Positions 86 to 35,995 of a stretch of 37,921 nucleotides of DNA are shown in pieces. Position 1 is the first letter of the stretch, and each line of letters starts with the position of its first letter. Location: positions 1-37,921 of IMG/VR virus record IMGVR_UViG_3300045988_123646. One strand, written 5' to 3'. The translations under genes and the position numbers were made by a program. The notes under the pieces were generated by a model. That model saw nothing but the letters and a program-made list of their open reading frames with translations, was not told the DNA's origin and searched no databases. The stretch comes from a virus.

Positions 86-328
86 ACGGTCAAAATGAAC
101 GCTGTTACAATTGGAGCAAACAGTACATATCTGCTGATTGATTTGCCGTACAAGTGCATTGCTGTGGATAATGTTTTTTGTGTCGGCATTTCAAACCTCG
201 GCAAGATTTTTAAATTTGCCATTCTGAAAAATAACACTTGGCTACAGTTTTCGACTCAGGATAAGACCGCATATACATTCGCAGACGGCGAGCAAATTAA
301 TGTGATTTGCTTGTACAAAATTAAATAA
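1..328 (+). CDS. Tail fibre / receptor-binding protein, C-terminal part (continuation of the ORF starting at 36062)
   Basis: Same reading frame as 36062..37921 (37,836 is divisible by 3). 1..85 duplicates the window end; stop TAA at 326..328. The whole protein is 700 aa. Confidence 0.8.
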   Translation, partial: TPYSTVTDKIKSASCTYKTIGDIVIVSATVKMNAVTIGANSTYLLIDLPYKCIAVDNVFCVGISNLGKIFKFAILKNNTWLQFSTQDKTAYTFADGEQINVICLYKIK

Positions 329-343
329 CGGAGGTATGAAAAA

Positions 344-622
344 ATGGAATTAAAAGAAAAAATCACACTTGATATGCTCACAAAGGACAGCGTGTCGGTA
401 CTCAGACAGCAGTTTTTGACCTTTAACGGTGAAGAAATGCAGGTGGGCGGAAACATCCGCAACGCATATATGAACAGCAAATCGGGCAGAGAACAGCTTA
501 AAACGGTGCTGTCTGATGAATATTACAACGCTGTTATGGCTGTATGGGGTGATAATCCAACCATTGACGAGCCGACTGTTGATGCTCCAATAGTTGATGA
601 CCCGACCATTGACGAAGTTTGA
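344..622 (+). CDS. Hypothetical 92-aa protein with a proline-rich C-terminal repeat (PTIDEPTVDAPIVDDPTIDE)
   Basis: ATG with GGAGGT 8 nt upstream, directly after the tail-fibre gene. No family recognised. Confidence 0.6.
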   Translation: MELKEKITLDMLTKDSVSVLRQQFLTFNGEEMQVGGNIRNAYMNSKSGREQLKTVLSDEYYNAVMAVWGDNPTIDEPTVDAPIVDDPTIDEV

Positions 623-5893: not shown

Positions 5894-6809
5894 GGGATTC
5901 ATTATTTTTCCTCGATGGATGTACTCAGACGGAGTGCTGAACGGTGACCGTGACTACTGGTCGGTATGGTCTTATTTGATGTTCAATGTCAATTATTTTG
6001 ACACGCAAGTCATCATCAAAAATGAAGTTTTGACAGTACATAAAGACCAAATTTTCACAACTCGAAGAAAAATTTCAGAGGCAATCGGAGTGTCCGAAAC
6101 TAAGGTTGACAAGGCTTTGAAACTCTTTGAAAAAGTCGGTTACATAAAAATGAAGTCGGACAGGCGAGGACGGCTTATTTCCTTGACTTTTGAGGAATTG
6201 CGAACCAAACCGCATACAACACCCTCACAGGAAAATGTCAACTATTGTACTGACACGGTACAACCTACCGACAATCAAGAGTGTTGTAACGCAGACGGTG
6301 AAACATCGCATAGCAATGCGGAATTTGGTGGTTTTGAAACCGAAACAAAACCAAAACAAAACCAAAATAAAGCCGAAACAAAACCAAAACAAAACCAAAA
6401 CGCATACACAAAAGAAATAAATAAAAAAATAAATAAGGAAAATAAAGATATATTGTCGAGCAATCTCGACACCGTGAAATCCGTTGTCGATTACCTCAAC
6501 GAAAAGTGCGGAACGAAATACAAACACTCGTCAACTGAAACACAACGGTTGATAGTCGCAAGAATCAATCAAGGTTTCAGTCTTGAGGACTTCAAGCAAG
6601 TGATTGACAACAAGGTTTCCAATTGGGGCAATGACTCGCAGATGTCAAAATTTCTCAGACCGCAAACGCTGTTTAGCAACAAGTTTGAGAGTTACCTCAA
6701 TCAATCGGTTACCGTTCAGAACAAGTCGGTTGATTCTTGGCGAGATTCATCTTTTAGCCTTGAGGATGTCAGCGGTTTTCATCCGTTGCCCGATTTGCCC
6801 GATTTTTAA
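5886..6809 (+). CDS. Replisome organiser / replication initiator (winged-helix N-domain plus conserved phage C-terminal domain)
   Basis: The C-terminal block VVDYLNEKCGTKYKHSSTETQRLIVARINQGFSLEDFKQVIDNKVSNW...FLRPQTLFSNKFESYLNQ matches the Phg_2220_C-type domain. Start is GTG with GAGGTGA RBS. Confidence 0.75.
   Translation: MVEGFIIFPRWMYSDGVLNGDRDYWSVWSYLMFNVNYFDTQVIIKNEVLTVHKDQIFTTRRKISEAIGVSETKVDKALKLFEKVGYIKMKSDRRGRLISLTFEELRTKPHTTPSQENVNYCTDTVQPTDNQECCNADGETSHSNAEFGGFETETKPKQNQNKAETKPKQNQNAYTKEINKKINKENKDILSSNLDTVKSVVDYLNEKCGTKYKHSSTETQRLIVARINQGFSLEDFKQVIDNKVSNWGNDSQMSKFLRPQTLFSNKFESYLNQSVTVQNKSVDSWRDSSFSLEDVSGFHPLPDLPDF
6340..6400. repeat. Two exact 28-bp direct repeats (CCGAAACAAAACCAAAACAAAACCAAAA), period 33 bp, inside the replisome organiser gene; candidate origin iterons
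   Basis: Copies at 6340..6367 and 6373..6400. They encode ETKPKQNQNKA twice in the interdomain linker. Confidence 0.6.
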
Positions 6810-6856
6810 CAACGAAGTCAAACGAAGTCACAAATTTCACGAAAGGAAATTTGAAA

Positions 6857-7078
6857 ATGCCAACTAACTGGGATGCAGTCAACGCACAATGTCCGTTCTA
6901 CTTGACGGAAACAATCAACACGATTACCTGTGAAGGGATTATCGGTCAGACCAATGTACACGGCTTTCACTTGCGAGCAGTCAAAGCAGAACACAAGAAC
7001 AAGTTTTGTAACCGCTGTTTCAAGCGATGCAAGTATTACATCGCATTGATTGATGAAAAATATCCCGAAAAAAGATGA
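6857..7078 (+). CDS. Hypothetical cysteine-rich protein
   Basis: ORF with GAAAGGAAA RBS and several Cys (CPFY, TCEG, CNRCFKRC). Confidence 0.5.
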   Translation: MPTNWDAVNAQCPFYLTETINTITCEGIIGQTNVHGFHLRAVKAEHKNKFCNRCFKRCKYYIALIDEKYPEKR

Positions 7079-7263
7079 AAAATCTACGGTGTGTGAAATG
7101 TGGCAGAGAGTTTTATTCTGCGACAATTCAGAGATGTAAATTCAGTAAATCAGGAGCGTTTGTGTGTATGTACTGCTGTCAGCGGAACTGCAAATACGCA
7201 CAACCGCATCTAAACGGAATGAGGTGTGGATACAATAATGCGAAGCAAATACAACAACCGTAA
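7075..7263 (+). CDS. Hypothetical zinc-ribbon protein
   Basis: CVKCG...CMYCCQRNC. The start overlaps the previous stop (ATGA). Confidence 0.5.
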   Translation: MKNLRCVKCGREFYSATIQRCKFSKSGAFVCMYCCQRNCKYAQPHLNGMRCGYNNAKQIQQP

Positions 7264-7600
7264 AGTCCGTTGTTGGGGAGAAACCTTTGACTCTATGCTT
7301 GAGTGTGAGAGATACAAGTATCTCAAGGCTCTCGAACAGCAGAAAGTCATATCAAACCTACGGAGGCAAGTAAAATATGTCCTCTTGCCCTCTCAGAAGG
7401 ATTCTAAGACAAGAAAAACAATCGAGAGGGAAATTACATACCTTGCTGATTTCGTTTATGAGAAAGGCTCTCAGACGATTGTAGAAGATGTCAAAGGAAT
7501 GAAGACGGATGTCTACAAGATAAAACGAAAGCTGATGCTTTACTTTCACGGAATCCAAATCAAAGAAGTTACAAAGGAGACGAAAACTTGGGTAGTTTAG
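7238..7600 (+). CDS. DUF1064-family protein (PD-(D/E)XK-like, putative Holliday-junction resolvase)
   Basis: The pattern FDSMLECERYKYL...YLADFVY...VEDVKG...YKIKRKLM matches DUF1064. Confidence 0.65.
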   Translation: MRSKYNNRKVRCWGETFDSMLECERYKYLKALEQQKVISNLRRQVKYVLLPSQKDSKTRKTIEREITYLADFVYEKGSQTIVEDVKGMKTDVYKIKRKLMLYFHGIQIKEVTKETKTWVV

Positions 7601-8112
7601 AAAAGAACGAGTCGATATCCAAAGAACAGTTGATGTTCGAGAAGTGCAAGGGCAATGTTAAGATACCGACATTCGATGCACTCAAGGTACAAGAAAGACT
7701 AAAGAAAAGCGTGTTTAATCGTTTTCAGTCGATAATGTCAGCATACAATCTGACTGGCATCAATTTTTACAAATTCCTCGGTCGAGGATATCAGCTTAAC
7801 CTTCCGTATCTTACGATGCAGGACATAACATACGCACTCAAAGTTACACCGTCATACCTTCTCTGTATTGACGATGTGAACAGGTTTGAGGAATACAGGG
7901 CAGGATATATATCGCTTGGTGATATCTTGCACTACATATACGAAGAAAATATGATGTCTGATGTTGAGTTGGCTAAGGTACTTGAATGCTCGACAACATC
8001 ACTTGGTAAGGTAAGACACGATGGTGTCCTTCCTGCAAGGAAATTCATCTACAACCTTGCAAAGCAGTTTAATCTTGACATTAATAACCTTTACGGTTAT
8101 TTCAAAAAATAA
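7588..8112 (+). CDS. Hypothetical protein with C-terminal XRE-like HTH (possible regulator)
   Basis: MSDVELAKVLECSTTSLGKVRHDGVLP resembles an HTH. TTG start, so the start is uncertain. Confidence 0.45.
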   Translation: MGSLEKNESISKEQLMFEKCKGNVKIPTFDALKVQERLKKSVFNRFQSIMSAYNLTGINFYKFLGRGYQLNLPYLTMQDITYALKVTPSYLLCIDDVNRFEEYRAGYISLGDILHYIYEENMMSDVELAKVLECSTTSLGKVRHDGVLPARKFIYNLAKQFNLDINNLYGYFKK

Positions 8113-10290: not shown

Positions 10291-10839
10291 ATGGTCTTAT
10301 CTGAAACAATTAACGGTATGGTGAGTGAGGACTACAAAGAAAGATTCATAGCCGAGTATTATCAATTGGTAATCCGTTATAAGGGATTGAAGAAAATGCT
10401 TGATAATTGGGACAAAGGGAATCTGAATTTTATTCCGACTTGCCCACGCAGTACATATGACTTGCAAATTAAAGCAATGGCTGAATATAAGGCTGTACTT
10501 AGAGCAAGAGCGGTTTTAGAGGGTGTTAATCTTGATGAAAACACACCTACTGTAGCAAAGTACAGAAAAATACCCGTTGTTATTGAAGCGTTCCAATATG
10601 ACGGCGACCTGAAAGCTAATGAAAAGTGGTGTGTGCCTGAATGGGCGGTAAATGCCTACAAAAAAGGTACGCTCTATTACAAAGAAATAAATAATACTCC
10701 CCCTGAATTATTTATTAAAACTCTTGAAGGGGATATGAAATGTAGTGTTATGGACTATATCATCAAAGGCATTGCTGGAGAATTATACGCTTGCAAGCCT
10801 GATATTTTTAAAAAAACTTATGAGAAAGTGGAGGAATAA
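10291..10839 (+). CDS. Hypothetical two-domain phage protein
   Basis: 182-aa ORF between holin and endolysin. The N-terminal helical part and the C-terminal PVVIEAFQY...GELYACKPDIFKKTYE block resemble common phage domains of unknown function. Confidence 0.5.
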   Translation: MVLSETINGMVSEDYKERFIAEYYQLVIRYKGLKKMLDNWDKGNLNFIPTCPRSTYDLQIKAMAEYKAVLRARAVLEGVNLDENTPTVAKYRKIPVVIEAFQYDGDLKANEKWCVPEWAVNAYKKGTLYYKEINNTPPELFIKTLEGDMKCSVMDYIIKGIAGELYACKPDIFKKTYEKVEE

Positions 10840-11107: not shown

Positions 11108-11992
11108 ATGAAAGTTACTGCTATTGATGTCAGCTACTGTCAGACAGGAGTTGACTACAACAAAGTCAAGAACAGCGGTATTGATGCTGTGATTATCCGT
11201 GCAGGATTCGGCAAAGAAACCTATCAAAAAGACTCTGAATTTGAAACGCATTACAGAAACGCTAAGAAGGCAGGTCTTGCGGTCGGTGTATATTGGTATT
11301 CCTATGCCTATTCTGTTGCAGAGGCAAAGCAGGAGGCTAAGGTATGCCTTGCGTGCATCAAAGGTAAAACGCTTGAATTACCTGTATATTATGACCTCGA
11401 GGAGAGTGGTCAGACAAAGCTCGGTATGTCGGCTCTGACAAACATTGCAATTGCTTTTTGCGATGCTATCAAATCGGGTGGTTACCGTGCGGGGGTATAC
11501 AGTAATCTTAACTGGCTCAACAATCACCTTGATTATGAAAAGCTCAGAAGTAAGTACAGTATTTGGCTTGCACAATGGTCATCAAACCCATCCAAGTCTT
11601 GCGATATATGGCAGAACGCCGATAACGGCAGAATCAGCGGTATCAGCGGTAATGTTGATACTGATGTAATCATTAATAAAAACATTATCAAATCAAAATC
11701 AGAGGTGAAGGAAGAAATGATTAAGAAGGGTTTAACAAACAATGCTATTCTTGCGTACAAAAAACAGCTTTTGAACCTGTATAATGCAGGTATCATCAAG
11801 ACTAAGGTTGACTCATCGGCAGGTTTCGGTGACGGAACAGAAAAGGCTGTCAGAGAAGTACAGGCTCTGGCGAAAATCAAGGTTAACGGTGAGGTTGGAG
11901 TCGACACAATCAATGCAACCGCAAAGCTGATGAATAATTATGTCAGCAAGCTAAAAACTAAAATTTCAAACGCAAAAAAGGCACTTGGCTGA
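11108..11992 (+). CDS. Endolysin: GH25 muramidase with C-terminal peptidoglycan-binding domain
   Basis: GH25 signature IDVSYCQTGVDYNKVKNSGIDAVIIRAG...YWYSYA...YYDLEE. The C-terminal GFGDGTEKAVREVQ is PG_binding_1-like. Confidence 0.9.
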   Translation: MKVTAIDVSYCQTGVDYNKVKNSGIDAVIIRAGFGKETYQKDSEFETHYRNAKKAGLAVGVYWYSYAYSVAEAKQEAKVCLACIKGKTLELPVYYDLEESGQTKLGMSALTNIAIAFCDAIKSGGYRAGVYSNLNWLNNHLDYEKLRSKYSIWLAQWSSNPSKSCDIWQNADNGRISGISGNVDTDVIINKNIIKSKSEVKEEMIKKGLTNNAILAYKKQLLNLYNAGIIKTKVDSSAGFGDGTEKAVREVQALAKIKVNGEVGVDTINATAKLMNNYVSKLKTKISNAKKALG

Positions 11993-12054: not shown

Positions 12055-12771
12055 ATGATAGAACTGTATCAAGGTAATTGTCTTGAATTAATGAAAAACA
12101 TTCCAGACAACATCGCCGATATGATACTTTGTGATTTACCGTACGGAACAACACGATGCAAATGGGATTCAATTATTCCTTTTGAACCATTATGGCAAGA
12201 ATACAATCGGATAATTAAAGATAATGCCGCGATTGTTTTATTCGCACAGGAACCGTTTGCAACGAAATTAAGAAGTAGCAATTTGAAAATGTATAAATAT
12301 GATTGGATATGGCAGAAGCCGCAGGGAACAAATTTCTTGAATGCTAAAAATCAACCGTTGAAGAATTACGAAATCATCTGTGTTTTTGGTAAAAAAAAAT
12401 TGCGATATAAGCCATGTTTTACAAAAGGAAAACCTTATACATCAGGTGGCGGTAATGTCGGTGAAGCGTACGGTGGAGGTAAAAAAATTATTACACATAA
12501 TGAAGGTGTTCGGTACCCAACAAGCATTCAAAAATTTAATGCGATTCAGAACACAAAAAGATTTCATCCGACACAGAAACCAGTTGACTTGCTTGAATAC
12601 TTAATCAAAACATATACAAACGAGGGTGATTTAGTCCTTGATAATTGCATGGGAAGTGGAAGCACAGGTGTTGCCTGCGTAAACACAAACCGAAACTTTA
12701 TCGGAATAGAGCTTGATGAAAAGTATTACAAAATAGCAGAGAAAAGAATAAATTCAGTGATTAAAACCTAA
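12055..12771 (+). CDS. DNA methyltransferase 2 (N6-adenine/N4-cytosine type), orphan
   Basis: Catalytic motif CDLPYG, HPTQKPVDLLEYLI, and AdoMet motif VLDNCMGSGSTG. No adjacent restriction gene. Confidence 0.9.
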   Translation: MIELYQGNCLELMKNIPDNIADMILCDLPYGTTRCKWDSIIPFEPLWQEYNRIIKDNAAIVLFAQEPFATKLRSSNLKMYKYDWIWQKPQGTNFLNAKNQPLKNYEIICVFGKKKLRYKPCFTKGKPYTSGGGNVGEAYGGGKKIITHNEGVRYPTSIQKFNAIQNTKRFHPTQKPVDLLEYLIKTYTNEGDLVLDNCMGSGSTGVACVNTNRNFIGIELDEKYYKIAEKRINSVIKT

Positions 12772-12788
12772 AGGACATTATTAATGTC

Positions 12789-12817
12789 TTGACAAACACA
12801 TAATTGCAATGTATCAT
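12789..12817 (+). promoter_or_regulatory. Promoter of small-RNA unit 1 (TTGACA, 17-nt spacer, TATCAT)
   Basis: TTGACA at 12789..12794 and TATCAT at 12812..12817. Confidence 0.6.
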
Positions 12818-12823
12818 AATGTT

Positions 12824-12916
12824 GTGTAAGGTTTTGTTTTTTACTTACGCAAGCATAAACTATTAGTTCTTAAACTGGAAAAGGCTCAGCTTTTGGCTGA
12901 GTCTTTTCTGTTGTTT
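12824..12916 (+). ncRNA. Small-RNA unit 1 (about 90 nt), paralogue of unit 2
   Basis: No ORF with an RBS. A 5-prime hairpin UUGUGUAAG / CUUACGCAA (12822..12852) has a U-rich 13-nt loop. The terminator is GGCTCAGC-TTTTG-GCTGAGTC plus a T-tract (12883..12916). Confidence 0.5.
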
Positions 12917-12930
12917 ACTATACAAAGAGC

Positions 12931-12959
12931 TTGACTGCAAGCCGAAAAAGTAGTATCAT
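12931..12959 (+). promoter_or_regulatory. Promoter of small-RNA unit 2 (TTGACT, 17-nt spacer, TATCAT)
   Basis: TTGACT at 12931..12936 and TATCAT at 12954..12959. Same architecture as the unit 1 promoter. Confidence 0.6.
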
Positions 12960-12963
12960 AGAA

Positions 12964-13070
12964 GTGCGGAAGTTTGTTTTTTTAATTTCTACTGTGGTAG
13001 ATTAGTTTTTTTATCCTTTCTTCCGTATAGATGACCTCGCTTATGTCATAGTGTGCGAGGTCATCTTGCT
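12964..13070 (+). ncRNA. Small-RNA unit 2: solitary Cas12a-repeat RNA (candidate RNA anti-CRISPR or orphan crRNA)
   Basis: Own promoter and no ORF with an RBS. Contains the V-A repeat-like sequence, a U-rich spacer-like 3-prime flank (13003..13028), and a perfect 12-bp hairpin AGATGACCTCGC / GCGAGGTCATCT (13029..13066). Confidence 0.55.
12967..13002 (+). CRISPR. Solitary type V-A (Cas12a) CRISPR repeat-like unit (single copy, no array, no cas genes)
   Basis: CGGAAGTTTGTTTTTTTAATTTCTACTGTGGTAGAT. The last 19 nt match the conserved Cas12a crRNA handle AAUUUCUACU-loop-GUAGAU. From memory, this differs from the FnCas12a handle AAUUUCUACUGUUGUAGAU at one loop base only. The stem UCUAC/GUAGA is intact. 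Confidence 0.7.
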
Positions 13071-13090
13071 TGACTATCAACACGCAAAAA

Positions 13091-13189
13091 TTGCGTGCTG
13101 TTTAAATTGTCATCATAATTTTTTATATATTAACTATTTACCTATGCAGGAAAGGCACACCGTTTATGGTGTGCCTTTTTTGTTTTTTT
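13091..13189 (+). ncRNA. Possible small-RNA unit 3 (weak promoter TTGCGT, 17-nt spacer, CATAAT; about 60-nt RNA; strong terminator)
   Basis: Terminator AAAGGCACACC-GTTTAT-GGTGTGCCTTT plus a T-run (13151..13189). No ORF. The promoter is only a moderate match. Confidence 0.35.
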
Positions 13190-13373
13190 ATGACTGTTCT
13201 GCTGACTGTTCTGCAATTTGCAGAAGTTTTTCGACAACTAACTTTTCGACATAAATCGGTGGGTTATGTTTTCCCGACTCCCAATCTTGTACAGTACGAT
13301 ACGGAATAAGTAACAAATCCGTCATTGCTCGCTGTGTTAATCCTGCCTTAATGCGTGCCTCTTTAATTGTCAT
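13188..13373 (-). CDS. Small XRE-family HTH regulator (Aca-like or antitoxin-like)
   Basis: MTIKEARIKAGLTQRAMTDLLLIPYRTVQDWESGKHNPP is a classic HTH with the WExGxxxP motif. The C-terminus has the duplication AEQSAEQS. Confidence 0.75.
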   Translation of the reverse strand: MTIKEARIKAGLTQRAMTDLLLIPYRTVQDWESGKHNPPIYVEKLVVEKLLQIAEQSAEQS

Positions 13374-13525
13374 CGTCCTTATCAACTCCTTTCATGTAAC
13401 CATCAATCCACACTACCTTGCCTGTTTGGTATCTTCTGAAATGTCCTCGAACCTGAAACACACCTTTGGGATTGTGACCGTCTGACCGTCCGCATTACCC
13501 GACCCGAAGGTCGGTCACTCTGCGA

Positions 13526-13750
13526 TTAAGCGATAATTTCAATGCCCCTTACATCGGAAAAAGTTACATTTGGATTCTTCGTGCCAAGCGTGTATTCATC
13601 ACTTTCATCATCTTTAAATATTACTTCTGCAAGACCAATGCACTCATTAAATTCGTTGTAAGTGGCGACCACCTCATATATTCCGCTTCCATCTTCGAGC
13701 CACGCTCCTTTTTTAAGATTCTCGAAGTCATTAAATGTTCTAATTTCCAT
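13526..13750 (-). CDS. Strongly acidic 74-aa protein (candidate anti-defence protein)
   Basis: RBS AAAAGGAGAAAAAA upstream of the ATG. About 17 Asp+Glu versus 6 Lys+Arg. No family recognised. It is the first gene of a minus-strand two-gene unit. Confidence 0.6.
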   Translation of the reverse strand: MEIRTFNDFENLKKGAWLEDGSGIYEVVATYNEFNECIGLAEVIFKDDESDEYTLGTKNPNVTFSDVRGIEIIA

Positions 13751-13805
13751 AGTGTTTTTTCTCCTTTTTTGGTCTGTGGGTGTTGCCCTGTGTTTTGATT
13801 TGTTG

Positions 13806-13839
13806 ATTATAATACACTACACGGATTTCGTGTTGTCAA
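13806..13839 (-). promoter_or_regulatory. Promoter/operator of the minus-strand acidic-protein/HTH operon
   Basis: The minus strand reads TTGACA ACACGAAATCCGTGT AG TGTATTATAAT. The -35 is consensus and is followed by the palindrome ACACG-N5-CGTGT. The -10 candidates TATTAT and TATAAT are spaced 19 or 22 nt away, which is suboptimal. Confidence 0.5.
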
Positions 13840-13872
13840 TAGCTTTTTTGAATTTTTTTGAAAAAATATTTT

Positions 13873-13916
13873 TTCGCTGACTGTTCGCTGACCGTTCGCC
13901 GTGTGCGGTTAGCGAA
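13873..13916. repeat. Four contiguous 11-bp iterons (three direct TTCGCTGACTG / TTCGCTGACCG / TTCGCCGTGTG, one inverted CGGTTAGCGAA) upstream of terS
   Basis: Read directly, 59 nt upstream of the terS start. Candidate pac-related or regulator-binding array. Confidence 0.55.
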
Positions 13917-13974
13917 TTTTTTTTTGCTTATATAGTATTTAATTTAAACATTATAGTGCAAAAGAGGTGTGACA

Positions 13975-14511
13975 ATGTCATCGAATAAATATCCGTGGAA
14001 CGAGATAGAACAAGAATATATAAACGGTTTGGAACAGTTTGAAATCCGCAAAAAATATGGTATGGCAGAGTCAACCCTGCGTAGGCATATAGACGAGTAC
14101 GGTCTGCGTGAGAAAAGACAAAAAATGACACAAAATGTCTACAAAAAAGCTACAGAACAGATTGAAAAGCAAAAAGTCAACAAAATGACGAAACTTATTA
14201 AAGCCTCAGATAAGATGGATGATTTAATCCTTGATTTTTTGAGGAGAGAGGGCGATGAATCGAACGGCTATGATGTCATTCCACCAATGCAGACTAAAGA
14301 CCTGCAGAGCCTGTCAAGAGCGTTAAAAGATGCCGTGGAAGTCAAACAGAATCTACACGGCATTATCGGAAGACTTGAGGCTGAACGGCTCGCACTTGAG
14401 CGTGAACGGCTTGCCCTTGAGCGTGAGAGGCTCAAAGCACAGCAGGACAAGGACAACATAGAGCCGACTATGTTCGCACTTTCAGATGAGGCAGAGAGGT
14501 ACGCAGAATGA
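13975..14511 (+). CDS. terS: Terminase small subunit
   Basis: N-terminal HTH-like segment (IRKKYGMAESTLRRHIDEYGL), a coiled-coil C-terminus, and a stop overlapping the terL start (ATGA). Confidence 0.6.
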   Translation: MSSNKYPWNEIEQEYINGLEQFEIRKKYGMAESTLRRHIDEYGLREKRQKMTQNVYKKATEQIEKQKVNKMTKLIKASDKMDDLILDFLRREGDESNGYDVIPPMQTKDLQSLSRALKDAVEVKQNLHGIIGRLEAERLALERERLALERERLKAQQDKDNIEPTMFALSDEAERYAE

Positions 14512-27268: not shown

Positions 27269-30200
27269 ATGACTTTTCGTGATTTACTCAAAAAGAAAAA
27301 TAATGATAATGACTCTCAATCGACAAGTTCGGTTGAGAGTTCTTCCGCAACTATTGACGATACACAAAGCAAAAATAAAACAATGAGAAGTACACTCGGA
27401 CAGAGTGATAGAGCAAACAATAAATCAATGCTTGACTATCTTCGTACACAAGAGGCGGTTGGTCAGGAAGAAGAGGAACAGACTGACACAGCACAAGCCT
27501 CAGCAGGTGTTGATATTATGTCAAGGTACTATAATTCATCTCAGCTTGCAAACAAAAACGCACAAAATGAATTGAGTAAAAGCACCTTTGACTCAATGAA
27601 AAATAAGGTTGATAATATTGCAAAGTATTATAACGGCTCAAATAAATTGTCTGATGATATGGTGTCAGCTTATAAAACTTTATCAGATAATGGTTATAAA
27701 AGCCTTGAAGAAGTCGAGGAAAATATACTTGACGGTGATTTACCAAAAGATGTTACAAGTGCTTACAAGTATATTACTGACAATCTTAATAAAATTTCAT
27801 CTACTGACCAACAGTCAACCGATACTCTTGGTGCGTTAGCAAAACAGTATGTAGCTAAACACGGCTATACAGAGGACACGGAAGATTATCAAGCTTATAT
27901 TCAAAACGCAGAAGATGTTGAAAACTACTATAAAAATTCAGCAAAAGAAATTCAAAATGCAATGTCAGATTTTGACACAGAACAGGAATACAAATCTGCT
28001 GTTGCACAGGCAGAAGAGGATGCCAAAACTTCCGATGACTTACAGAAGGAATATGACAAGAAGAAAGCCGAGTATGACAGCACTTGGGGCGATTTCAACA
28101 AGGAATATGCCGAAATTGGCGGTAGTTATAATAACAATCCCTTCACTACGCAGGGCAAAAACGCAAAAAAGAAATTGCAAGAACGCACCGACCAAAGAAC
28201 CGAACTCGATAACCTACAGAAAAAAATTGACCAAAAAAAGGAACTTGAAAACGAAAAGAAATACTATACTGATTTCCGCAAGCAAAATCCCGAAGTGGCA
28301 AAAACTCTTGATGCTTACTATGATATGCAGTCATATGAAGAGGAACACTCCAAAGATTCATTTGATACATATAACAAGGATGCTTTAAAAGAGAAACTCG
28401 AAAAAGGCAAATCGCCGACAGATTCCTTATATACCGATGAAGAGAAAAAAGCTATTGAAACTAACTTTAATTCGCTTAAAACTCTCGATGGTTGGAATGT
28501 TGACCAAATTTATAAATACTACAAACGAGCAAAAGACAGAGAAAAAGCTGAGAAAGAAAATGAAAATATTAAAGATTTTGCTGATAAACACCCGATTGCA
28601 AGTACGGCTATAAGTACGCTTAATATGATTCCGTCAGCTTTTGAATCCTCACCAAAACAAGTTGCATCTGTTGTCGATAAATGGACAGGCGGTGACGGAT
28701 ATTATAATCCCGAGGAATCTGCCGTGTACCAAAACAATTTACTGCAACAAAAAGTCGCAAGTAATATAGATAATCCGTTAGGAAGATTGGCTTACCAACA
28801 GGGAGTCAGCCTTGTTGATAACGCTATTCGTATGGGTATCGCATATGCAAATCCTGCTGTCGGATTGTCTACGATGGGTGCGGAAGCAGCAACACAGGGA
28901 TTTAATGATACTGTTGAAAATGGCGGTTCTGTAGAACAGGCACTTTTCACAGGTCTTGCTTATGCAGGTGTTGAAGTGCTTACCGAAGGTGTATCACTTG
29001 GTAAACTGAAAAGTTTTAAAAATGGCGGTGTAAAGGAATTCAAGAGCATTTTAAAGAATGCAGGAAAGCAGATTTTGACCGAGGCATCGGAAGAAGTATC
29101 CGCAACACTCCTTGATAGTGTAGCAGATGAAATCATTAACGGTAGCTTATCTCAGCTTGAGACAGAGTATGACAGATATATTGACAGCGGTATGTCTGAA
29201 ACCGAGGCAGGACAGGCAGTAATGCTGAATTACGGCGGTCAGATTATACAGGATGCAATTGGCGGAGCGTTGATGGGCGGAATTTCGGGTACTGCCGTCA
29301 ATACATCTCAGTACAGACGAAATATTAAGGCAGGAAAATCTATATCCTCTCTTAATAACATAGACACAGTTAAGAATCTTGCCAAACATTACGGTCTTAA
29401 TAACAGCGTTACCGATTATGAAAGCAATCCGACTGATGCAAGACTCGGAGCTTTGCAGAGCGAGGCATACGAAAAAGCAACAGAAAGTATGCCAACAGAA
29501 AAAGACTTTAAAAGAGTTATCAAAAAAGCAAACCTTGCATCGGATGAAAATGTTGTTGCAAACAAACTTACAAACGGTGAAAATTTAACAGACGATGACC
29601 TCGAAAAAATCAAAAAGTCTGAAAGTTTAAAGTCACTTCTTGCAAACGATGTTGTCAATCAGGCAAAGAGTGCAAGATTTAATCAGCAGACTGCATTGCT
29701 TTCCGCAGACACAAAACTGTTCACACCGAGCCTCATTGAATTTAACGCTGAGAAAAGTGATGCTGATGCAAATCTTAACAATGCCGAAACGCTCGACAAG
29801 TTTCTTTCGGAAAACTCTAAAAATATGACAATCAACACCGATACGGTCGATAAGATGAAAGATGCTTATAACGGCTTGGAAGATAAAATCGAACCTGATA
29901 CTTTCGCTATGGAGTATGCGAGATTTTTCAATCAGGGTGTCCGTGCGGTTGCGTTTCAGAGCTTGAATAGCACAGTATCACAGTTACCGTACAATGTACA
30001 AGTATCGGCTTATGAAGATGGCTTAAATAAGTACACAACGGCACTCAAAGCTGGCAACGCTCTTTCAAAATTACAGCAGGAATGGAAAGACAAAACAAAC
30101 GGTTACGCTAAAGGTACGGTTGACACTTCCGCTCTTGAAGGTATCAAACTTAACGATGAACAGAAAGCATCTGTTGATTATATCTCAGGCTATGCTAATC

Positions 30201-33200
30201 ACGGCTTGAATGTTAAGTTTTATGCATCACGGGCTGACGAAAACGGTGTGTATATAGACGATAACGGTGGTTATGACTCTTTGACTAATACCATAATGAT
30301 TGATATTAACGCAAAGAAGGAAACCATCAACGATGTTATAAGTAAAGGTGCGATGATGTCAACTTTCGGTCACGAACTTTCCCACCTTGCTGAACACGCA
30401 CCCACAGAGTATGCAGAGCTTTCAAAAGCTATTCAGGATGCCGTTGGTGCTGATACATTCAACGATGCAGTCGATAAGCATTATTCTATACTTGAAGAAC
30501 GCAACAGCGACAAATGGCAAAAAATGTCAGAGGATAAAAGACAAATTTATGCGACAAGAGAGGCAGTTGCTGAATTTTCTTCTGACCTTGTTAACAAAGC
30601 AAAAATCCTTGAAAAAATGTCAAAAGAGAATCCTTCTGTTGGTAAGAAGTTTATCAATCTCATTAAGAAGGTTATTAGCAAGATTAAAAGCATTCTCAAG
30701 GATAACAGAGGTATGACCGATGAGGCAAGACTACTTGCTAACGACCTTGCAAGCAATGCTGAAAAACTGCAGTCAATTGTTGATAAGTACGAAAAAGCTG
30801 TCATCGAAGGACTTAAAAATCAGAATGCAAAAGTTCATACAAATAAATCTTCTGTAAAAGAAAATAATACAAAAACTCAAAGTAATACAAGAACAGGAGA
30901 TTTTCTTACAGAAAGAGAAAGAACGCTTGTAGCAACACACAATATAAGTTCACAGAACCTTATGAATCTTATCAACGATTTTGACGGAGCAGGTTTACCA
31001 GTACCGAGCATTGCAATTGAGAAAGCTGATAGTGTTCACGATGATTTTGGCGATGTTACTCTGTTGTTTAGCAAGGACACGATTGACCCACAGAATAACA
31101 GTAATAACAATGTGTACAGCCGTGATGCGTGGACAAGTACCTTTCCACAGACGGAATACAAAATTAACGCTGAGGGCCTTAAAGCAATTGCGAAAAAGTT
31201 AGATTTATCTGAGAATTATCTCGAAAGTAATATATTTAACACTAATGATTTAAATGGAATTAAGCGTAAATTTTTAAATGACAGATATGTACGAAAAGCC
31301 TTCATTGAAGAAAACAATATTGAGGTTACCCCTGTTGCATATGAAAAAAAACCTAAATTCTCATTTTTCGCAAACCCAACTGTCAAGTCTTTTATCAAAA
31401 ACAACAACTGTACATTTGATAGACTTGTTAATGACAAAGAATTTCGAGATGCTTTTTTAAAGGTTGCTAAAGAGTCAATTCGACTGCGGATTGCGTTGCG
31501 ACAAGTCGAAAGATTTGAAAACACTCTTGATGATTGTGCAAAATCTAAAGATGTGTACAGCGATTCCAAAGAGTCAATTGAATACTGCATTGAATATGCC
31601 AAAGGTAATGCTAAAAAAGAAGTGACTGAATACTCATATGAAGAAGGTATAGAAAATGCTATCAATGAGCATAAAGCGGAATTTGAAAAGTATATAGACG
31701 ATATGCTTTCTGAAAGCGGTGTCATCGGTGATAAATATATTATCAGAGATGATGTTAACTTGTATAACAATGACGGCAGTAGGAAATCTTTTGAACAGAC
31801 ACATTACGATTACAATATTGATAATGTAGTCAAAGCTATGAAAGTAGGAAGGAGTGCTATCAGTAATTCTTTTTTTGGTGGAATAGAATACGCTAAAACA
31901 ATATCAGCCAAAAATCTCAATAGCATTGAAGAAATTAAAAGTAATGAACATAAGTTACAAGAATTATCGGCTGATGAAATCGAAACCCAAAAGGAAAACA
32001 TTTCCAATCTGCTTGCTCCGATAATAAGAGAGATTGCGGACAGTAGTAAATACAGCAACAGAGAATTTGACGATGGCTATATAGAGGCAAGTAATAGTGT
32101 TGTGGATGCGTTTAAAAGGTACAATACTATTGACGGAGTGTATAAATATCTTAAACAGTATTATGGTAACCTCAAAAAAAGCACGATTAATAAACTTTTC
32201 AAAGCGAGAGATGAGATTGCCGAAATGCCAGTAAGATACTTCGAGGCAAAGCCACACAGAGTTGTAGGATTTGACGAGGTAATGGCGGTGGTTATTCCTG
32301 CTGATGCAGACGAAAAATTAAAAACTGCTCTCAAAAAAATGGATATTCCCATGTATGAGTATGCTGACGAAAGTCAAAGAGCAGATGCTACGCACAAAGC
32401 AATCAACACGGAATATACAGACAAATCGGGTGTAACTTATGATAATCTTCAATTCTCAAGTAACAGAGGTGACTTTCTCAGCAACCGAGAGGCACTCGCA
32501 CAGGCTCTTGAAACAACAACAATTAACGCATCAGAGCGAAACACCGTCAAGACCTATCAACAGGGACTTGAGCAAATGAACAAACTCAACGATAAGCTTA
32601 ATGAGATTGACAGCAAAATTAAGACTATCAATGCCAAAGACAACATCTCTAAGAGCGACAAAGCGGAGATTGCATCGCTTATGAAAGTTAAAGCGGAAAC
32701 CGAAGAAAAAATCGTAAACAAAGACAAAAATCTTTTAAAACTGGAGTCAACTGAGGCAATGCGTAACATCTTGAAATACGAAACTTCTAAGAAAATTGCA
32801 AGGGTGCGTGAGCAGAAGAATGAGCGTATTGCTGAAATCAGAAAGCAGGAAACGCAGAAACGCAAGGATGCCGTTGCAAAACTCCGTAAACAGAAGAATG
32901 ATAAGATTGATGATATTATCGTGAAAAACCGTGAGAAACGAAAAGCAGATGCCGAAAAACGCAAGGATAATCAGGATTGGTCACACTCAATCAGTGAAAT
33001 CAAGAAATACTCGAAGAAATTGTTAGATGCTGTCTTGCATCCGACAGAAAAGATGTATATTCCATACGGCTTGAATGAGCCTATCAAGAGCATTACATCA
33101 ACTCTTCTTGATTCAATCAATCTCGATAACGATACTAAGATGTCAGACAATCTGAGAAAACTCTCTCAACAGCTTGAACAAGTCAATCAAAGCGATGAGC

Positions 33201-35995
33201 ATTACGGTGATTTTTACAATGCTTACAATGAGGAAATTATCGAGGAAATAAAAGGCTTTGCCGATTACCTTGATGATAGACTTGAAGGTGTCAAAATCAA
33301 GAAGCAGACACAGGGAGAAAGCCTTATCGAAGGACTCACACACGAAGAGGCTAAGGAAATTGAACAGATTGTCAAAGATGTGTACAACGCAACAAGGGAT
33401 GCTGTTAAGCAGATTGGTAGACAGGATGCTATTACTAACTATGAGTCAGGTTTAAGGATTATTAATCAGACAAGAGAACTCGGTGATGTTAAGCTTAATG
33501 TAATGGACTCATTACTTGACCAAGTATTATCACCGATGCGACTTATGGCGAAGTACACAGGCTACAATGCGGATGCCGAGCTTATGTATCACATCAATGC
33601 TCTTAACGAAGGTACAGAAAAGTACAATATGTTTAAGATGCTTGCCGAAAAGCCTCTCAATGATTTTATCAAAGAAAATCCAAAGGAGTACGAAAGCTTT
33701 AAAAACGATGTCATCGAAATCAAATACCGTGACAATAAGAATGTTGCACAGACTGTCAAAATGACAAAATCACAGGGATTGCAGATACTGATGTCTTGGA
33801 CAAGAGAACATACAGAAGACTCTCACCTTGACCATATGGAGCGAGGCGGTGTTACTCTGCTTGATGCCGAACAGATAAGTAAAGGCAATTATGAAAAGGC
33901 ATTTGCTCAAAGAAAGACTATCAGAGGCATTAATTTAAGTTTCATATCGGCTGTGCAGAGTCAAATGGGAGAGTTTGAAAACCATTATCGTGAACTTGCT
34001 GAAACTCTCTTCAATGAGGTTTCAAATGCTTACATCAATGACACTTCTGCAATTCTTCTTCATCGTGACATTGCAACCGAAAGATACTACATACCTTTTG
34101 CTGTTAATAAAGATTTTCTTTCAACGGAGATTGACGGTCTAAAGTACGATGCGACCATTGTCAACAAGGGTATGCTGAAATCTACGAAAAGAAACGCACC
34201 ACAGGCTCTTAACATTGCAGGACTCGACAGCGTTATATCGAAGCATATAAGAGATGTCGGACAGTATTACGGTTACGCTGTGCCTATTCGCAATCTTAAC
34301 AAGGCACTCAATGTTAAGTTGTTTGACACAAACGAAAACGGTAACAAGATTGCAACAGACTCCGTCCGAAACTCCCTCAGAGAAACCTTTAATTCTGACA
34401 AACCTATTCAGTTTATCGAACAGGTAATGACTGATTTACAGACATCAAGAAAATCAAACTCTCAGACCGAAAAAGCAATCAATAAGATTGTTAGGGCAGT
34501 CAGAGATAATATGATTACATCGGCACTCAAAGGCTCTGTATCGGTAGTTATTAAGCAGGGTGCATCATTGTACACAGCATCAAGCATTCTTTCAATGCGT
34601 TCCGTATCTGTCGGTGCAGTCAAAGGCATTCAGCAGATTGCTCGCAAAGGTGGTTGGAAACAGCTTACAGATGAGATTGATACACACACGGCAGGTCATT
34701 ATATGCGTAGAATTGGCTTGTCATCGATGGAAATTGAGGCAATGAAAGACTCTTGGCTCGGTAAGAAACTGCCCACAGCACTCAACCCTGCAAAATGGAT
34801 ACAGGGTACAGACTGTATTACAACAGCGTTGCATTGGGTGGCTACTAAAGAAGAAGTAAGCCGACTTTATAAAGAACAGGGAAAAGCTGACCAAATAGGC
34901 TCTGATGAATATTTTGACGAGGTCACAAAGTTATATGACCAAATCCTTGAAGAAACACAGCCTATGTATGACAGTTTGCATCGAGGCGAGATACAGAAAA
35001 ATTCAAACGAGTTGTTAAAGTCTGTATTTATGTTCAAAACTCAGCCATTGCAGAACACAGGTATTTTGTATGATGCAATTATGGATTATCAGGCAAACAA
35101 GGACAATGCAGAACTTCGAGATGTCAAGAAACAAAAACTTGCAAAAGCAGTTTCTTCACAGATGATGTCAGCACTTACTTTCGTTGCAATGACCTTTATT
35201 GCATCTCTCGCTCTTCATAAACCTGAACGCTACAAAGATGAAAATGATGAGGTCACTCTTTCATCTGTTCTTGAAAGACTCGGTATTGACTGGGTAGAAA
35301 CAGGATTTAGCGTTCTTGTTCCGATTGGTGGTGCTGAACTTGCATCTTTCATTGAAAATCAGATTAACGGTAAAGATTATGATTTTGCTTCTGACAATGT
35401 TGTGTCAATGCTCAATGACTTTACTTCATCAATCGGTGACTTTAACCAGAATGTTATTGTTGCTCTTGCACAAGGTAATTTTGACCTCGACAAAGCAAAA
35501 GATGCCCTATGGGGATTATCTGTCGATGGTCTTGCATTTTTCAGAGGATTCCCATTGAAGAATTACAGCAATATCATTAACGGTATCTTCTCTAATTTGT
35601 CGGATGCAATCAGCGGTCACAGCACTTACTTCGGTTCATCGGGCGGTCGAAAAGGTAGTGAATACGCAAACTCATATGATGTACTTATTGACAATAACCC
35701 CGAAAAGGCAAAGCAACAGCTTGAAACATTCTACAATGAGAAGTACGAAGAGCAGATTGCAAAAGGCGAAACCACAACAGAGGCTAAGAAAAAAGCACAG
35801 ACCTCTGTCCGTACTGCACTAACTACGCAGTATAAGAAAGAGTATCAAAAAGCATTTCTTAATAATGACCGTGACACAATGCAGAAAATCAACAAGAAAC
35901 TGCAGGAGTCAGGCTATATGAAGTGGGAAGGCAAATCATTGTCAACCGTGTTAGGCGAATGGACTAAGTCAGCTCAAAAAGATTCAAGCAAATAA
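27269..35995 (+). CDS. Giant 2,908-aa polyvalent-type virion protein with an HEXXH metallopeptidase-like domain
   Basis: One uninterrupted ORF with an AAGGAGA RBS. It has coiled-coil regions, glycine-zipper/hydrophobic segments (GGALMGGISG, MMSALTFVAMTFIASLAL), and HELSH at 30371..30385 in the context MMSTFGHELSHLAEH. Confidence 0.75.
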   Translation: MTFRDLLKKKNNDNDSQSTSSVESSSATIDDTQSKNKTMRSTLGQSDRANNKSMLDYLRTQEAVGQEEEEQTDTAQASAGVDIMSRYYNSSQLANKNAQNELSKSTFDSMKNKVDNIAKYYNGSNKLSDDMVSAYKTLSDNGYKSLEEVEENILDGDLPKDVTSAYKYITDNLNKISSTDQQSTDTLGALAKQYVAKHGYTEDTEDYQAYIQNAEDVENYYKNSAKEIQNAMSDFDTEQEYKSAVAQAEEDAKTSDDLQKEYDKKKAEYDSTWGDFNKEYAEIGGSYNNNPFTTQGKNAKKKLQERTDQRTELDNLQKKIDQKKELENEKKYYTDFRKQNPEVAKTLDAYYDMQSYEEEHSKDSFDTYNKDALKEKLEKGKSPTDSLYTDEEKKAIETNFNSLKTLDGWNVDQIYKYYKRAKDREKAEKENENIKDFADKHPIASTAISTLNMIPSAFESSPKQVASVVDKWTGGDGYYNPEESAVYQNNLLQQKVASNIDNPLGRLAYQQGVSLVDNAIRMGIAYANPAVGLSTMGAEAATQGFNDTVENGGSVEQALFTGLAYAGVEVLTEGVSLGKLKSFKNGGVKEFKSILKNAGKQILTEASEEVSATLLDSVADEIINGSLSQLETEYDRYIDSGMSETEAGQAVMLNYGGQIIQDAIGGALMGGISGTAVNTSQYRRNIKAGKSISSLNNIDTVKNLAKHYGLNNSVTDYESNPTDARLGALQSEAYEKATESMPTEKDFKRVIKKANLASDENVVANKLTNGENLTDDDLEKIKKSESLKSLLANDVVNQAKSARFNQQTALLSADTKLFTPSLIEFNAEKSDADANLNNAETLDKFLSENSKNMTINTDTVDKMKDAYNGLEDKIEPDTFAMEYARFFNQGVRAVAFQSLNSTVSQLPYNVQVSAYEDGLNKYTTALKAGNALSKLQQEWKDKTNGYAKGTVDTSALEGIKLNDEQKASVDYISGYANHGLNVKFYASRADENGVYIDDNGGYDSLTNTIMIDINAKKETINDVISKGAMMSTFGHELSHLAEHAPTEYAELSKAIQDAVGADTFNDAVDKHYSILEERNSDKWQKMSEDKRQIYATREAVAEFSSDLVNKAKILEKMSKENPSVGKKFINLIKKVISKIKSILKDNRGMTDEARLLANDLASNAEKLQSIVDKYEKAVIEGLKNQNAKVHTNKSSVKENNTKTQSNTRTGDFLTERERTLVATHNISSQNLMNLINDFDGAGLPVPSIAIEKADSVHDDFGDVTLLFSKDTIDPQNNSNNNVYSRDAWTSTFPQTEYKINAEGLKAIAKKLDLSENYLESNIFNTNDLNGIKRKFLNDRYVRKAFIEENNIEVTPVAYEKKPKFSFFANPTVKSFIKNNNCTFDRLVNDKEFRDAFLKVAKESIRLRIALRQVERFENTLDDCAKSKDVYSDSKESIEYCIEYAKGNAKKEVTEYSYEEGIENAINEHKAEFEKYIDDMLSESGVIGDKYIIRDDVNLYNNDGSRKSFEQTHYDYNIDNVVKAMKVGRSAISNSFFGGIEYAKTISAKNLNSIEEIKSNEHKLQELSADEIETQKENISNLLAPIIREIADSSKYSNREFDDGYIEASNSVVDAFKRYNTIDGVYKYLKQYYGNLKKSTINKLFKARDEIAEMPVRYFEAKPHRVVGFDEVMAVVIPADADEKLKTALKKMDIPMYEYADESQRADATHKAINTEYTDKSGVTYDNLQFSSNRGDFLSNREALAQALETTTINASERNTVKTYQQGLEQMNKLNDKLNEIDSKIKTINAKDNISKSDKAEIASLMKVKAETEEKIVNKDKNLLKLESTEAMRNILKYETSKKIARVREQKNERIAEIRKQETQKRKDAVAKLRKQKNDKIDDIIVKNREKRKADAEKRKDNQDWSHSISEIKKYSKKLLDAVLHPTEKMYIPYGLNEPIKSITSTLLDSINLDNDTKMSDNLRKLSQQLEQVNQSDEHYGDFYNAYNEEIIEEIKGFADYLDDRLEGVKIKKQTQGESLIEGLTHEEAKEIEQIVKDVYNATRDAVKQIGRQDAITNYESGLRIINQTRELGDVKLNVMDSLLDQVLSPMRLMAKYTGYNADAELMYHINALNEGTEKYNMFKMLAEKPLNDFIKENPKEYESFKNDVIEIKYRDNKNVAQTVKMTKSQGLQILMSWTREHTEDSHLDHMERGGVTLLDAEQISKGNYEKAFAQRKTIRGINLSFISAVQSQMGEFENHYRELAETLFNEVSNAYINDTSAILLHRDIATERYYIPFAVNKDFLSTEIDGLKYDATIVNKGMLKSTKRNAPQALNIAGLDSVISKHIRDVGQYYGYAVPIRNLNKALNVKLFDTNENGNKIATDSVRNSLRETFNSDKPIQFIEQVMTDLQTSRKSNSQTEKAINKIVRAVRDNMITSALKGSVSVVIKQGASLYTASSILSMRSVSVGAVKGIQQIARKGGWKQLTDEIDTHTAGHYMRRIGLSSMEIEAMKDSWLGKKLPTALNPAKWIQGTDCITTALHWVATKEEVSRLYKEQGKADQIGSDEYFDEVTKLYDQILEETQPMYDSLHRGEIQKNSNELLKSVFMFKTQPLQNTGILYDAIMDYQANKDNAELRDVKKQKLAKAVSSQMMSALTFVAMTFIASLALHKPERYKDENDEVTLSSVLERLGIDWVETGFSVLVPIGGAELASFIENQINGKDYDFASDNVVSMLNDFTSSIGDFNQNVIVALAQGNFDLDKAKDALWGLSVDGLAFFRGFPLKNYSNIINGIFSNLSDAISGHSTYFGSSGGRKGSEYANSYDVLIDNNPEKAKQQLETFYNEKYEEQIAKGETTTEAKKKAQTSVRTALTTQYKKEYQKAFLNNDRDTMQKINKKLQESGYMKWEGKSLSTVLGEWTKSAQKDSSK

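Follow-up and report, generated by a model that had tools for sequence, protein, structure and literature searches.

The stretch analyzed here, the 37,921 nt of IMG/VR virus record IMGVR_UViG_3300045988_123646 (hereafter the window), carries on its minus strand a small operon that encodes an acidic 74-aa protein and, after it, a 61-aa XRE-type helix-turn-helix (HTH) regulator. We read this locus as an HTH-controlled accessory operon of the anti-CRISPR (acr)-aca type in a phage of gut Clostridia, made up of a promoter with a candidate operator, the 74-aa cargo gene, a type-P5 twister ribozyme, the relic of a deleted gene and the HTH gene, and we give this reading a probability of about 0.58. 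Judged from aligned sequences, the gene just 5' of the twister encodes an AcrIC5-domain cargo in conjugative-element-like contigs and in a sister phage, in the latter at the exact position of the 74-aa gene. The acr-aca layout and phage ribozymes were already known; a twister within an acr-aca-type operon appears to be new. Coordinates of the operon are given on the minus strand, and L-numbers are labels of related contigs, of which L048-L166 are IMG/VR contigs.

An earlier note on this DNA had proposed an acr-aca-like locus at this place. Its architecture holds, in that the HTH family recurs with changing cargo including an AcrIC5 domain, and a solitary Cas12a repeat does adjoin the operon as it said. 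The 74-aa reading frame is present and acidic, with a net charge of -10 instead of about -11, and the XRE-type HTH gene is present as well, not directly following but after a 152-nt gap whose contents, the twister and the relic, had been missed. The acr-aca interpretation is thus only partly supported, because the architecture is right and the anti-defence function of the 74-aa protein is putative.

A type-P5 twister is predicted between the cargo gene and the regulator gene

The gap between the 74-aa and HTH genes holds a type-P5 twister (Rfam RF02684; 13524..13466) that starts 2 nt past the stop codon of the 74-aa gene, followed by the gene relic. The match covers the full model (positions 1-58 of 58) with 45.5 bits (E 1.7e-6), above the gathering score of 37.6. 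All conserved loop nucleotides are present in the alignment, namely L1 GAG.G (GAGUG in the window), the junction UAAUGC with the U-A cleavage site, and L4 GUC.CAA.CC (here GUCACAAUCC), and these nucleotides are strongly conserved in the class (PMC5408937). Stem P2 is CGCA/UGCG and P1 (13515..13498) is a GC-rich hairpin of 6 bp capped by a UUCG loop; the minimum-free-energy fold recovers both. The pseudoknots pair as well, T1 as GUG with CAC and T2 as GA with UC (by the description in PMC5408937). At their variable positions (T1 U-A, T2 A-U) the window differs from the Rfam consensus on both sides with pairing kept, and these positions covary, being Watson-Crick in 116/119 distinct P5 twisters from viral contigs for each of the two. 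At the level of sequence, the twister therefore keeps the core nucleotides of its family and both pseudoknots, and cleavage is predicted between U13497 and A13496.

Stem P4 varies between alleles. The window has CCCAA where sister alleles have CCCGA, a G-to-A change; the sister alleles form 2/3 of the annotated P4 pairs, and all three are formed in 101/120 phage twisters. The score is 52.6 bits for the G allele and 45.5 bits for the window allele. The linker before P4 (13482..13491) contains an 8-nt duplication, GACGGTCA, which is related to the GAAC(A/G)GTCAG motif described below; the G allele, found in phage and in conjugative-element-like contigs, has it too. A P5 closing stem was sought in the flanks and none is proposed, the flanks being unconserved between loci. 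A second ribozyme suspected in the leader of L045 was not found by Rfam.

The cargo changes while promoter, twister and regulator are kept

The most direct comparison is with L048, a sister phage that has the 5' untranslated region of the window and carries a 171-aa AcrIC5-domain gene (E 1e-19) in the slot of the 74-aa gene. This cargo is followed by the twister, two small open reading frames (ORFs), an HTH 88% identical to that of the window, the hairpin and the Cas12a-like repeat. Homology between L048 and the window breaks off at either end of the cargo reading frame, at its start codon and its stop codon, and the twister is identical in 60/60 nt, with flanks that are 86-88% identical. AcrIC5 itself, an anti-CRISPR of type I-C, is strongly acidic and is reported to prevent the binding of target DNA (bioRxiv 10.1101/2025.06.06.658234).

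The same arrangement is found outside phages. In conjugative-element-like contigs, a 175-aa product with a clear match to Pfam AcrIC5 (E 1e-18) is encoded upstream of an HTH 61-81% identical to that of the window, with the same promoter layout, and in L167-169 a twister of the L018/L048 allele stands between the AcrIC5-like gene and a 232-aa gene, after which comes an HTH 81% identical. In all, AcrIC5-domain genes (Pfam E 1e-18 to 1e-19), homologues of a validated Acr, precede HTH genes whose products share 61-88% identity with that of the window.

What follows the twister also varies. It stands 3' of a 73/74-aa gene in L007-L018 and L038-L040, regardless of the next gene: the HTH follows directly in L017, in which the whole relic has been lost and the ribozyme kept; the relic and then the HTH follow in the window; genes of 59 aa and 135 aa and then the HTH in L038; and a 221-aa gene and then the HTH in L039 and L040. 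A small HTH gene at the 3' end of the operon is the layout in all relatives. Across the loci compared, the HTH family is always paired with a promoter of the form TTGACA-palindrome-(-10), while the genes in between vary. In L007-L016, the phages most closely related to the window, five additional small genes precede the 74-aa gene (6331..7869, corresponding to an insert at about 13750..13850 of the window) and stand under a further copy of the promoter with its operator; their products have 163 aa (with a weak match to the J domain), 90 aa, 82 aa (with a weak match to Lar-like restriction alleviation), 60 aa and 63 aa. From the sequences, these five genes appear to have been lost from the window via recombination between two promoter copies.

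As a separate observation, in the conjugative-element-like contigs L001-L005 and L167-L175 the operons with 74-aa, 195-aa and HTH genes and those with AcrIC5-like and HTH genes lie at comparable positions between common neighbors, which include a giant LPD25/helicase protein, Macro, RNase_T and ParB. These comparable positions suggest an anti-defence hotspot.

Promoter and candidate operator

The operon promoter was read directly from the sequence, and the TTGACA box with a palindrome in the spacer, as claimed in the earlier note, is there: the -35 box TTGACA at 13839..13834 and, immediately 3' of it, the 15-nt candidate operator ACACGAAATCCGTGT (core CACG-N5-CGTG) at 13833..13819. Two -10 candidates, TATTAT (13814..13809) and TATAAT (13811..13806), give spacers of 19 and 22 nt, respectively. 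The promoter scan, which allows spacers of 16-18 nt, did not call the operon promoter because this -10 distance is non-canonical; for the same reason, the promoter, which the earlier note had called strong, is not textbook-strong.

The core CACG-N5-CGTG occurs once in the 37.9-kb window, where we estimate about 0.6 occurrences by chance, and the motif by itself is therefore not significant. On comparison of the loci, it is position and conservation among relatives that make it meaningful. TTGACA with a palindrome is arranged in the same way in L007, L026-L033, L045, L048, L167 and L173, and homologous promoters of relatives have 17-nt spacers. The operator of L048 is the exact reverse complement of the window palindrome, in the same place, and relatives of the L007 type have a second promoter copy, in which the palindrome is perfect (CACGAAATTCGTG) and the spacer measures 17 nt. 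Where the HTH is more distant (about 45-61% identical to that of the window), other palindromes stand at the same promoter position: TTGACA-TATCACGCAATGCGTGA-TATAAT in L026-L033, with HTHs 50-61% identical, and TTGACA-ATTATAGCTCATTGAGC-TATAAT in L045, with an HTH about 45% identical by an estimate made by eye. Activation of the MerR kind via the 19-nt spacer was considered and rejected, the homologous promoters having 17-nt spacers and the regulator being an XRE-type HTH.

Tandem GAAC(A/G)GTCAG motifs stand in pairs at both ends of the cassette, the first pair 5' of the promoter (13877..13897) and the second within the last HTH codons (13190..13211), where it encodes AEQSAEQS; 5/11 matches in the window fall in these 700 bp. 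The motifs may be a cassette boundary or a recombination site.

The 74-aa protein, its former neighbor and the HTH regulator

The 74-aa gene (13750..13526) is preceded by a GGAG ribosome-binding site at 13764..13761. Its product has 16 acidic and 6 basic residues and an isoelectric point (pI) of 4.1. There are 42 close homologues, 68-100% identical and none of them named, and an exhaustive HMMER profile search added about 20 further small acidic relatives that are 31-66% identical; giant Kelch or HYR repeat proteins that also matched the profile were judged spurious. Against diverged copies, nonsynonymous differences (pN 0.12-0.17) are far below synonymous ones (pS 0.55-0.73), which places the gene under purifying selection. 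An AlphaFold2 model with a mean predicted local distance difference test score (pLDDT) of 95 shows four long beta strands between two short helices. Homologues, selection and this confident model mark the ORF as a real gene. Foldseek with this model found nothing significant, the best E values being 0.1 (PDB) and 0.04 (BFVD), to generic small beta barrels. Relatives of the protein were absent from 185,579 reference genomes, and the GenBank phage collection gave no DNA match. In L045, a 71-aa acidic member of the family (60% identical) stands directly before the HTH gene, beside a methyltransferase at the end of a prophage.

In the window, the 74-aa gene has lost a neighbor. The remainder of the gap (about 13474..13363) is the relic of a deleted gene for a 195-aa protein of the phrog_10678 family, comprising its last ~40 codons, with a stop codon that overlaps the start of the HTH gene. 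By tblastn, the relic matches residues 153-195 of the intact protein with 77% identity, reaching up to 13491, and DNA homology to intact 195-aa genes begins near 13474. The 3' half of the twister and the 195-aa coding sequence have CGGTCAC in common, so that this half might stem from the 195-aa gene, and a junction at the CCCGA microhomology fits equally well. The intact cassette of 74-aa, 195-aa and HTH genes is found in L001-5, L021-L030, L032 and L033, where the ORFs abut or overlap; these three-gene cassettes have no twister.

The 195-aa protein is basic (pI 9.2, charge +7) and is 87-99% conserved among the cassette loci, and phrog_10678 is a family of unknown function. It has no Pfam family, no match in a PDB sequence search and no toxin or nuclease fold. 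Its AlphaFold2 model has a mean pLDDT of 71, with a disordered basic C-terminal tail that is the most conserved part. A GNAT-like fold was considered and rejected, the Foldseek matches being insignificant, with template modelling (TM) scores of 0.2-0.3. Separately, L041, a phage with a pair of 74-aa and 196-aa genes, carries a type II hammerhead ribozyme (Rfam, 43.9 bits) at 319..383 (minus strand) beside a Mu-type transposase gene.

The last gene of the operon (13373..13188, ATG start) encodes the 61-aa, Aca-like XRE-type HTH (Pfam HTH_3, E 5.5e-7). Its family has 54 homologues, named in the sources only as a YiaG-like regulator. Judging from the genes that it accompanies, this putative new Aca-like HTH family of gut Clostridia elements is a lead in its own right.

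A solitary Cas12a-like repeat beside the operon

Beyond the HTH gene, on the plus strand, stands the solitary Cas12a-like repeat AATTTCTACTGTGGTAGAT (12984..13002), unique in the window. A promoter called by the promoter scan (TTGACT-17-TATCAT, 12931..12959) precedes it, with the repeat 18-25 nt downstream and then a T run. A GC-rich hairpin at 13146..13183 separates the HTH gene from the transcript of the repeat; the terminator scan called it on the plus strand only. The repeat is kept beyond the HTH gene in L007-L018, L038 and L048. By its sequence features, the unit at 12931..13002 (plus strand) looks like a type V-A RNA anti-CRISPR (Racr), and Racr repeats co-locate with acr genes (PMC10651486).

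Two inverted repeats lie between the Cas12a-like repeat and the hairpin, GATGACCTCGC...GCGAGGTCATC at 13031..13067 and CACGCAAAAATTGCGTG at 13081..13100 (plus strand), and both are kept in L048. The half-sites of CACGCAAAAATTGCGTG resemble the CACGCA operators of related HTHs, with a different spacing.

P5 twisters in other viral contigs

The position of the twister between two genes is general. Of the P5 twisters in viral contigs (n = 127), 80% begin between -12 and +10 nt from an ORF stop codon (ORFs of >=40 aa), compared to 9% of random positions, and 86% precede a ribosome-binding site and start codon within 10-60 nt, compared to 13% of random positions. Some contigs have 2-4 twisters between successive small genes, such as L062 (3270..5402) and L129, with four within ~1.4 kb. 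About 90% of the ORFs adjoining phage twisters belong to no known family. Among the 106 distinct ORFs upstream of twisters, a single Pfam family recurs, AcrIC5 (4 members), and one more ORF matches ArdC; downstream of twisters, the families seen most often are HTH_3 and HTH_31 (5/116 ORFs).

It has long been suggested that phage ribozymes might process polycistronic RNAs, and in a prophage ardA is flanked by hammerheads (PMC3088659, PMC6765202). We found no report in the literature of a ribozyme inside an acr-aca operon, and ribozymes go unmentioned in a 2026 survey of the regulatory mechanisms of Aca proteins.

Proposed mechanism

Early transcription from the operator-bearing promoter would make one RNA, which the twister would cut between U13497 and A13496. 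The mRNA for the 74-aa protein would keep its triphosphate 5' end and would end in the stable P1 hairpin with a 2',3'-cyclic phosphate, and the HTH mRNA would start with a 5'-OH and have a leader of about 120 nt. Self-cutting of the transcript would therefore give cargo and repressor separate mRNA fates. In Firmicutes, RNase J attacks 5'-OH RNA, as for the product of the glmS ribozyme, and of the two halves the repressor mRNA may therefore decay faster, which would postpone shut-off. Our guess is that cleavage raises the ratio of cargo to repressor. After accumulating, an HTH dimer would bind the palindrome and repress the operon as Aca proteins do, and in relatives it would act on the second promoter also. 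The ribozyme may moreover insulate the cargo slot from the downstream sequence and ease the exchange of cargo, which would fit the exchange observed. Repression by Aca proteins via inverted repeats in acr promoters is established (PMC6765145, PMC9410906).

Inhibition of a host defence is the most likely function of the 74-aa protein, and we rate its chance at slightly short of even. By the layout of the locus, the protein sits in an acr slot, beside the Cas12a repeat resembling an RNA anti-CRISPR and a methyltransferase, an argument of guilt by association. Cas12a is a candidate target because the Cas12a-like repeat adjoins the operon, and a rather improbable one in our estimate. In a bolder form of the proposal, which we consider speculative and would not expect to hold, P5 twisters would be the built-in 3' boundary of anti-defence cargo genes in operons of phages and conjugative elements, separating cargo mRNA from repressor mRNA, thereby setting the ratio of Acr to Aca, and serving as a conserved swap junction, and the 74-aa protein would be a new anti-defence protein, possibly an anti-Cas12a beside the neighboring RNA anti-CRISPR.

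Points against and alternative explanations

A number of observations weigh against the acr-aca reading. Neither the 74-aa protein nor its family profile has a match in Pfam, PHROG, PADLOC or a PDB sequence search. The protein is no known Acr, Ocr, ArdA or DNA mimic by sequence or fold; the comparison with Acr, Ocr and DNA-mimic folds that the earlier note had asked for gave no match (AlphaFold2 and Foldseek against PDB and BFVD), and acidity is the sole property that it has in common with these proteins. Profile comparison found no relation between its family and the AcrIC5-like protein, and the AcrIC5-domain proteins are themselves homologues of Acrs, not assayed Acrs. Structures of Aca1, Aca2 and Aca10 are present in the PDB; the HTH matches no chain named Aca there at E<=1, its matches being generic XRE regulators. 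The promoter spacer of the window is 19 or 22 nt. P4 of the window allele forms 1/3 of the annotated pairs plus an invariant G-C and thus falls short of a three-pair stem. Finally, in most loci outside the phage group the 74-aa gene is tightly linked to the basic 195-aa gene, and the 74-aa protein may act on or with this partner and not on host defence.

This last point leads to an explanation in which the 74-aa protein is an antidote, chaperone or regulator of the 195-aa protein, with the HTH as regulator of the module; we regard it as unlikely, and the same holds for the narrower claim that the 74-aa protein works with or against the 195-aa protein. In the window, where the partner is deleted, the 74-aa gene would be an orphan, which could be neutral or could be kept to neutralise related proteins of competitors or the host. 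The tight cassette of 74-aa, 195-aa and HTH genes in many loci speaks for this explanation, with a 195-aa protein conserved at 87-99%, and so do the opposite charges of the two proteins (-10 and +7) and the conserved basic tail, modelled as disordered, as if it depended on a partner. The acidic gene also lies upstream and the basic gene downstream, which is the classic antitoxin-toxin order. The earlier note had found a toxin-antitoxin reading less attractive, and an origin of this two-component or toxin-antitoxin-like kind is not so easily dismissed, because elsewhere the 74-aa gene is usually tightly linked to the 195-aa gene, abutting or overlapping it. As a type II toxin-antitoxin system, however, the window lacks a second intact gene, and the ancestral 195-aa partner has no toxin family or fold and neither a nuclease fold nor a Pfam family. 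The 74-aa gene is moreover fully conserved without the partner in >100 contigs and under purifying selection, it stands alone or directly with the HTH in other lineages, and in L048 an AcrIC5-domain protein holds its slot.

The locus might instead be a generic moron, a lysogenic-conversion or host-takeover unit with an ordinary phage HTH, next to which the Cas12a repeat and the methyltransferase are a coincidence. It is true that about 90% of the ORFs beside phage twisters have no known family, that the 74-aa fold is modelled as a generic small beta barrel and that the HTH goes by no name other than YiaG-like regulator; we nevertheless hold this to be quite improbable, as mobile elements of two kinds have the same regulatory chassis with an AcrIC5-domain cargo, the solitary Cas12a-like repeat is kept beside the HTH, and the weak Lar-like matches and the DNA methyltransferase fall in the same variable region. 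A different doubt concerns the ribozyme, which in the window could be an inactive remnant, killed by the G-to-A change in P4 and the 8-nt duplication, with the gap as a scar of the 195-aa deletion. P4 with 1/3 annotated pairs is rare among phage twisters, the score falls from 52.6 to 45.5 bits between the G allele and the window allele, and many predicted ribozymes fail to cleave (PMC8782182). On the other side, the window twister scores above the Rfam threshold with the matched core nucleotides and both pseudoknots intact, its 60 nt are identical to those of L048 though the flanks have diverged by 12-14%, the duplication is present in the G allele too, in phage and conjugative-element-like contigs alike, and L017 retains the ribozyme after losing the entire relic. 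That the twister is dead thus seems unlikely to us.

Comparison with known systems

The acr-aca operons of Aca1, Aca2, Aca10 and others resemble the locus in having a small cargo first, a small HTH last and an inverted repeat in the promoter, and in combining a constant regulator family with changing cargo; here, too, the regulator family is tied to a known Acr family through the AcrIC5 domain. The two promoters with the same operator in relatives parallel the co-regulation of adjacent operons by Aca (PMC13551039). The locus differs in its HTH, which has no detectable similarity to PDB chains named Aca, in its cargo, which is no known Acr, and in the ribozyme between cargo and regulator. The Aca literature does describe Aca-binding RNA motifs in 5' untranslated regions.

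Type-P5 twister ribozymes were reportedly described by Roth et al. in 2014. The window twister resembles this class (RF02684; PMC5408937) in its core nucleotides, stems P1 and P2, the two pseudoknots, a U-A cleavage site and a phage-associated setting; it is unlike it in the weakened P4 and the 8-nt duplication before P4 of the window allele, and in that the ribozyme stands in a defined regulatory circuit and travels with a cargo slot. The hammerheads that flank ardA and other genes in prophages (Perreault et al. 2011, PMC3088659) are likewise ribozymes between genes of a polycistronic phage transcript; ardA is an anti-restriction gene, and the role proposed for them is processing to single-gene mRNA (PMC3088659). 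They belong to another ribozyme class, with no linked autoregulator and no evidence of cargo swapping. The Racr systems (PMC10651486) share the solitary Cas12a-like repeat behind its own promoter and beside candidate acr genes, and differ in that the repeat here is a separate transcription unit on the other strand, outside the operon.

The biological role of the thousands of twister and hammerhead ribozymes of bacteria and phages is still open (PMC5408937, PMC6765202). The locus puts a twister in a small circuit with three measurable parts, the cargo gene, the ribozyme and the autoregulator, and relatives supply natural controls: G and A alleles of the ribozyme, versions with and without the relic, and AcrIC5-like or 74-aa cargo. 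The effect of cleavage on the ratio of cargo to repressor is therefore directly measurable. RiboJ-type ribozyme insulators and intercistronic processing sites decouple the genes of an operon, cleavage removing the dependence of one cistron on its neighbors; RiboJ-type insulators are engineered parts, of which the window locus would be a natural counterpart. If twisters do act as a cargo boundary, bacterial twister ribozymes would thereby gain their first defined biological role. The 74-aa family of small beta barrels is a lead as candidate anti-defence proteins, and a practical search rule follows from the layout: in operons that close with an HTH gene, an ORF whose end is closely followed by a P5 twister is a candidate anti-defence gene.

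Phage setting and neighboring features

The window is from a tailed phage or prophage. On the plus strand it encodes an endolysin (11108-11992), a DNA methyltransferase (12055-12771), a small-terminase-like protein (13969-14511), the large terminase (14508-15926) and the portal protein (15917-18031), and the operon lies between the methyltransferase and small-terminase-like genes, on the strand opposite to both. The host is probably a gut member of Clostridia, because relatives of the terminase (<=70% identical) occur in Ruminococcus, Oscillospiraceae and Acutalibacteraceae genomes from gut samples.

Three further features of the plus strand may be mentioned. In the lysis region, homologues of a 182-aa ORF (10291..10839) have a precomputed Pfam match to PF21825 (Sequestin). 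The structural region contains a single 2908-aa ORF (27269..35995). Just past the methyltransferase gene, at 12789..12910, a near-consensus promoter (TTGACA-17-TATCAT) is followed ~60 nt on by a strong terminator hairpin (12876..12910), and this could be a small RNA unit.

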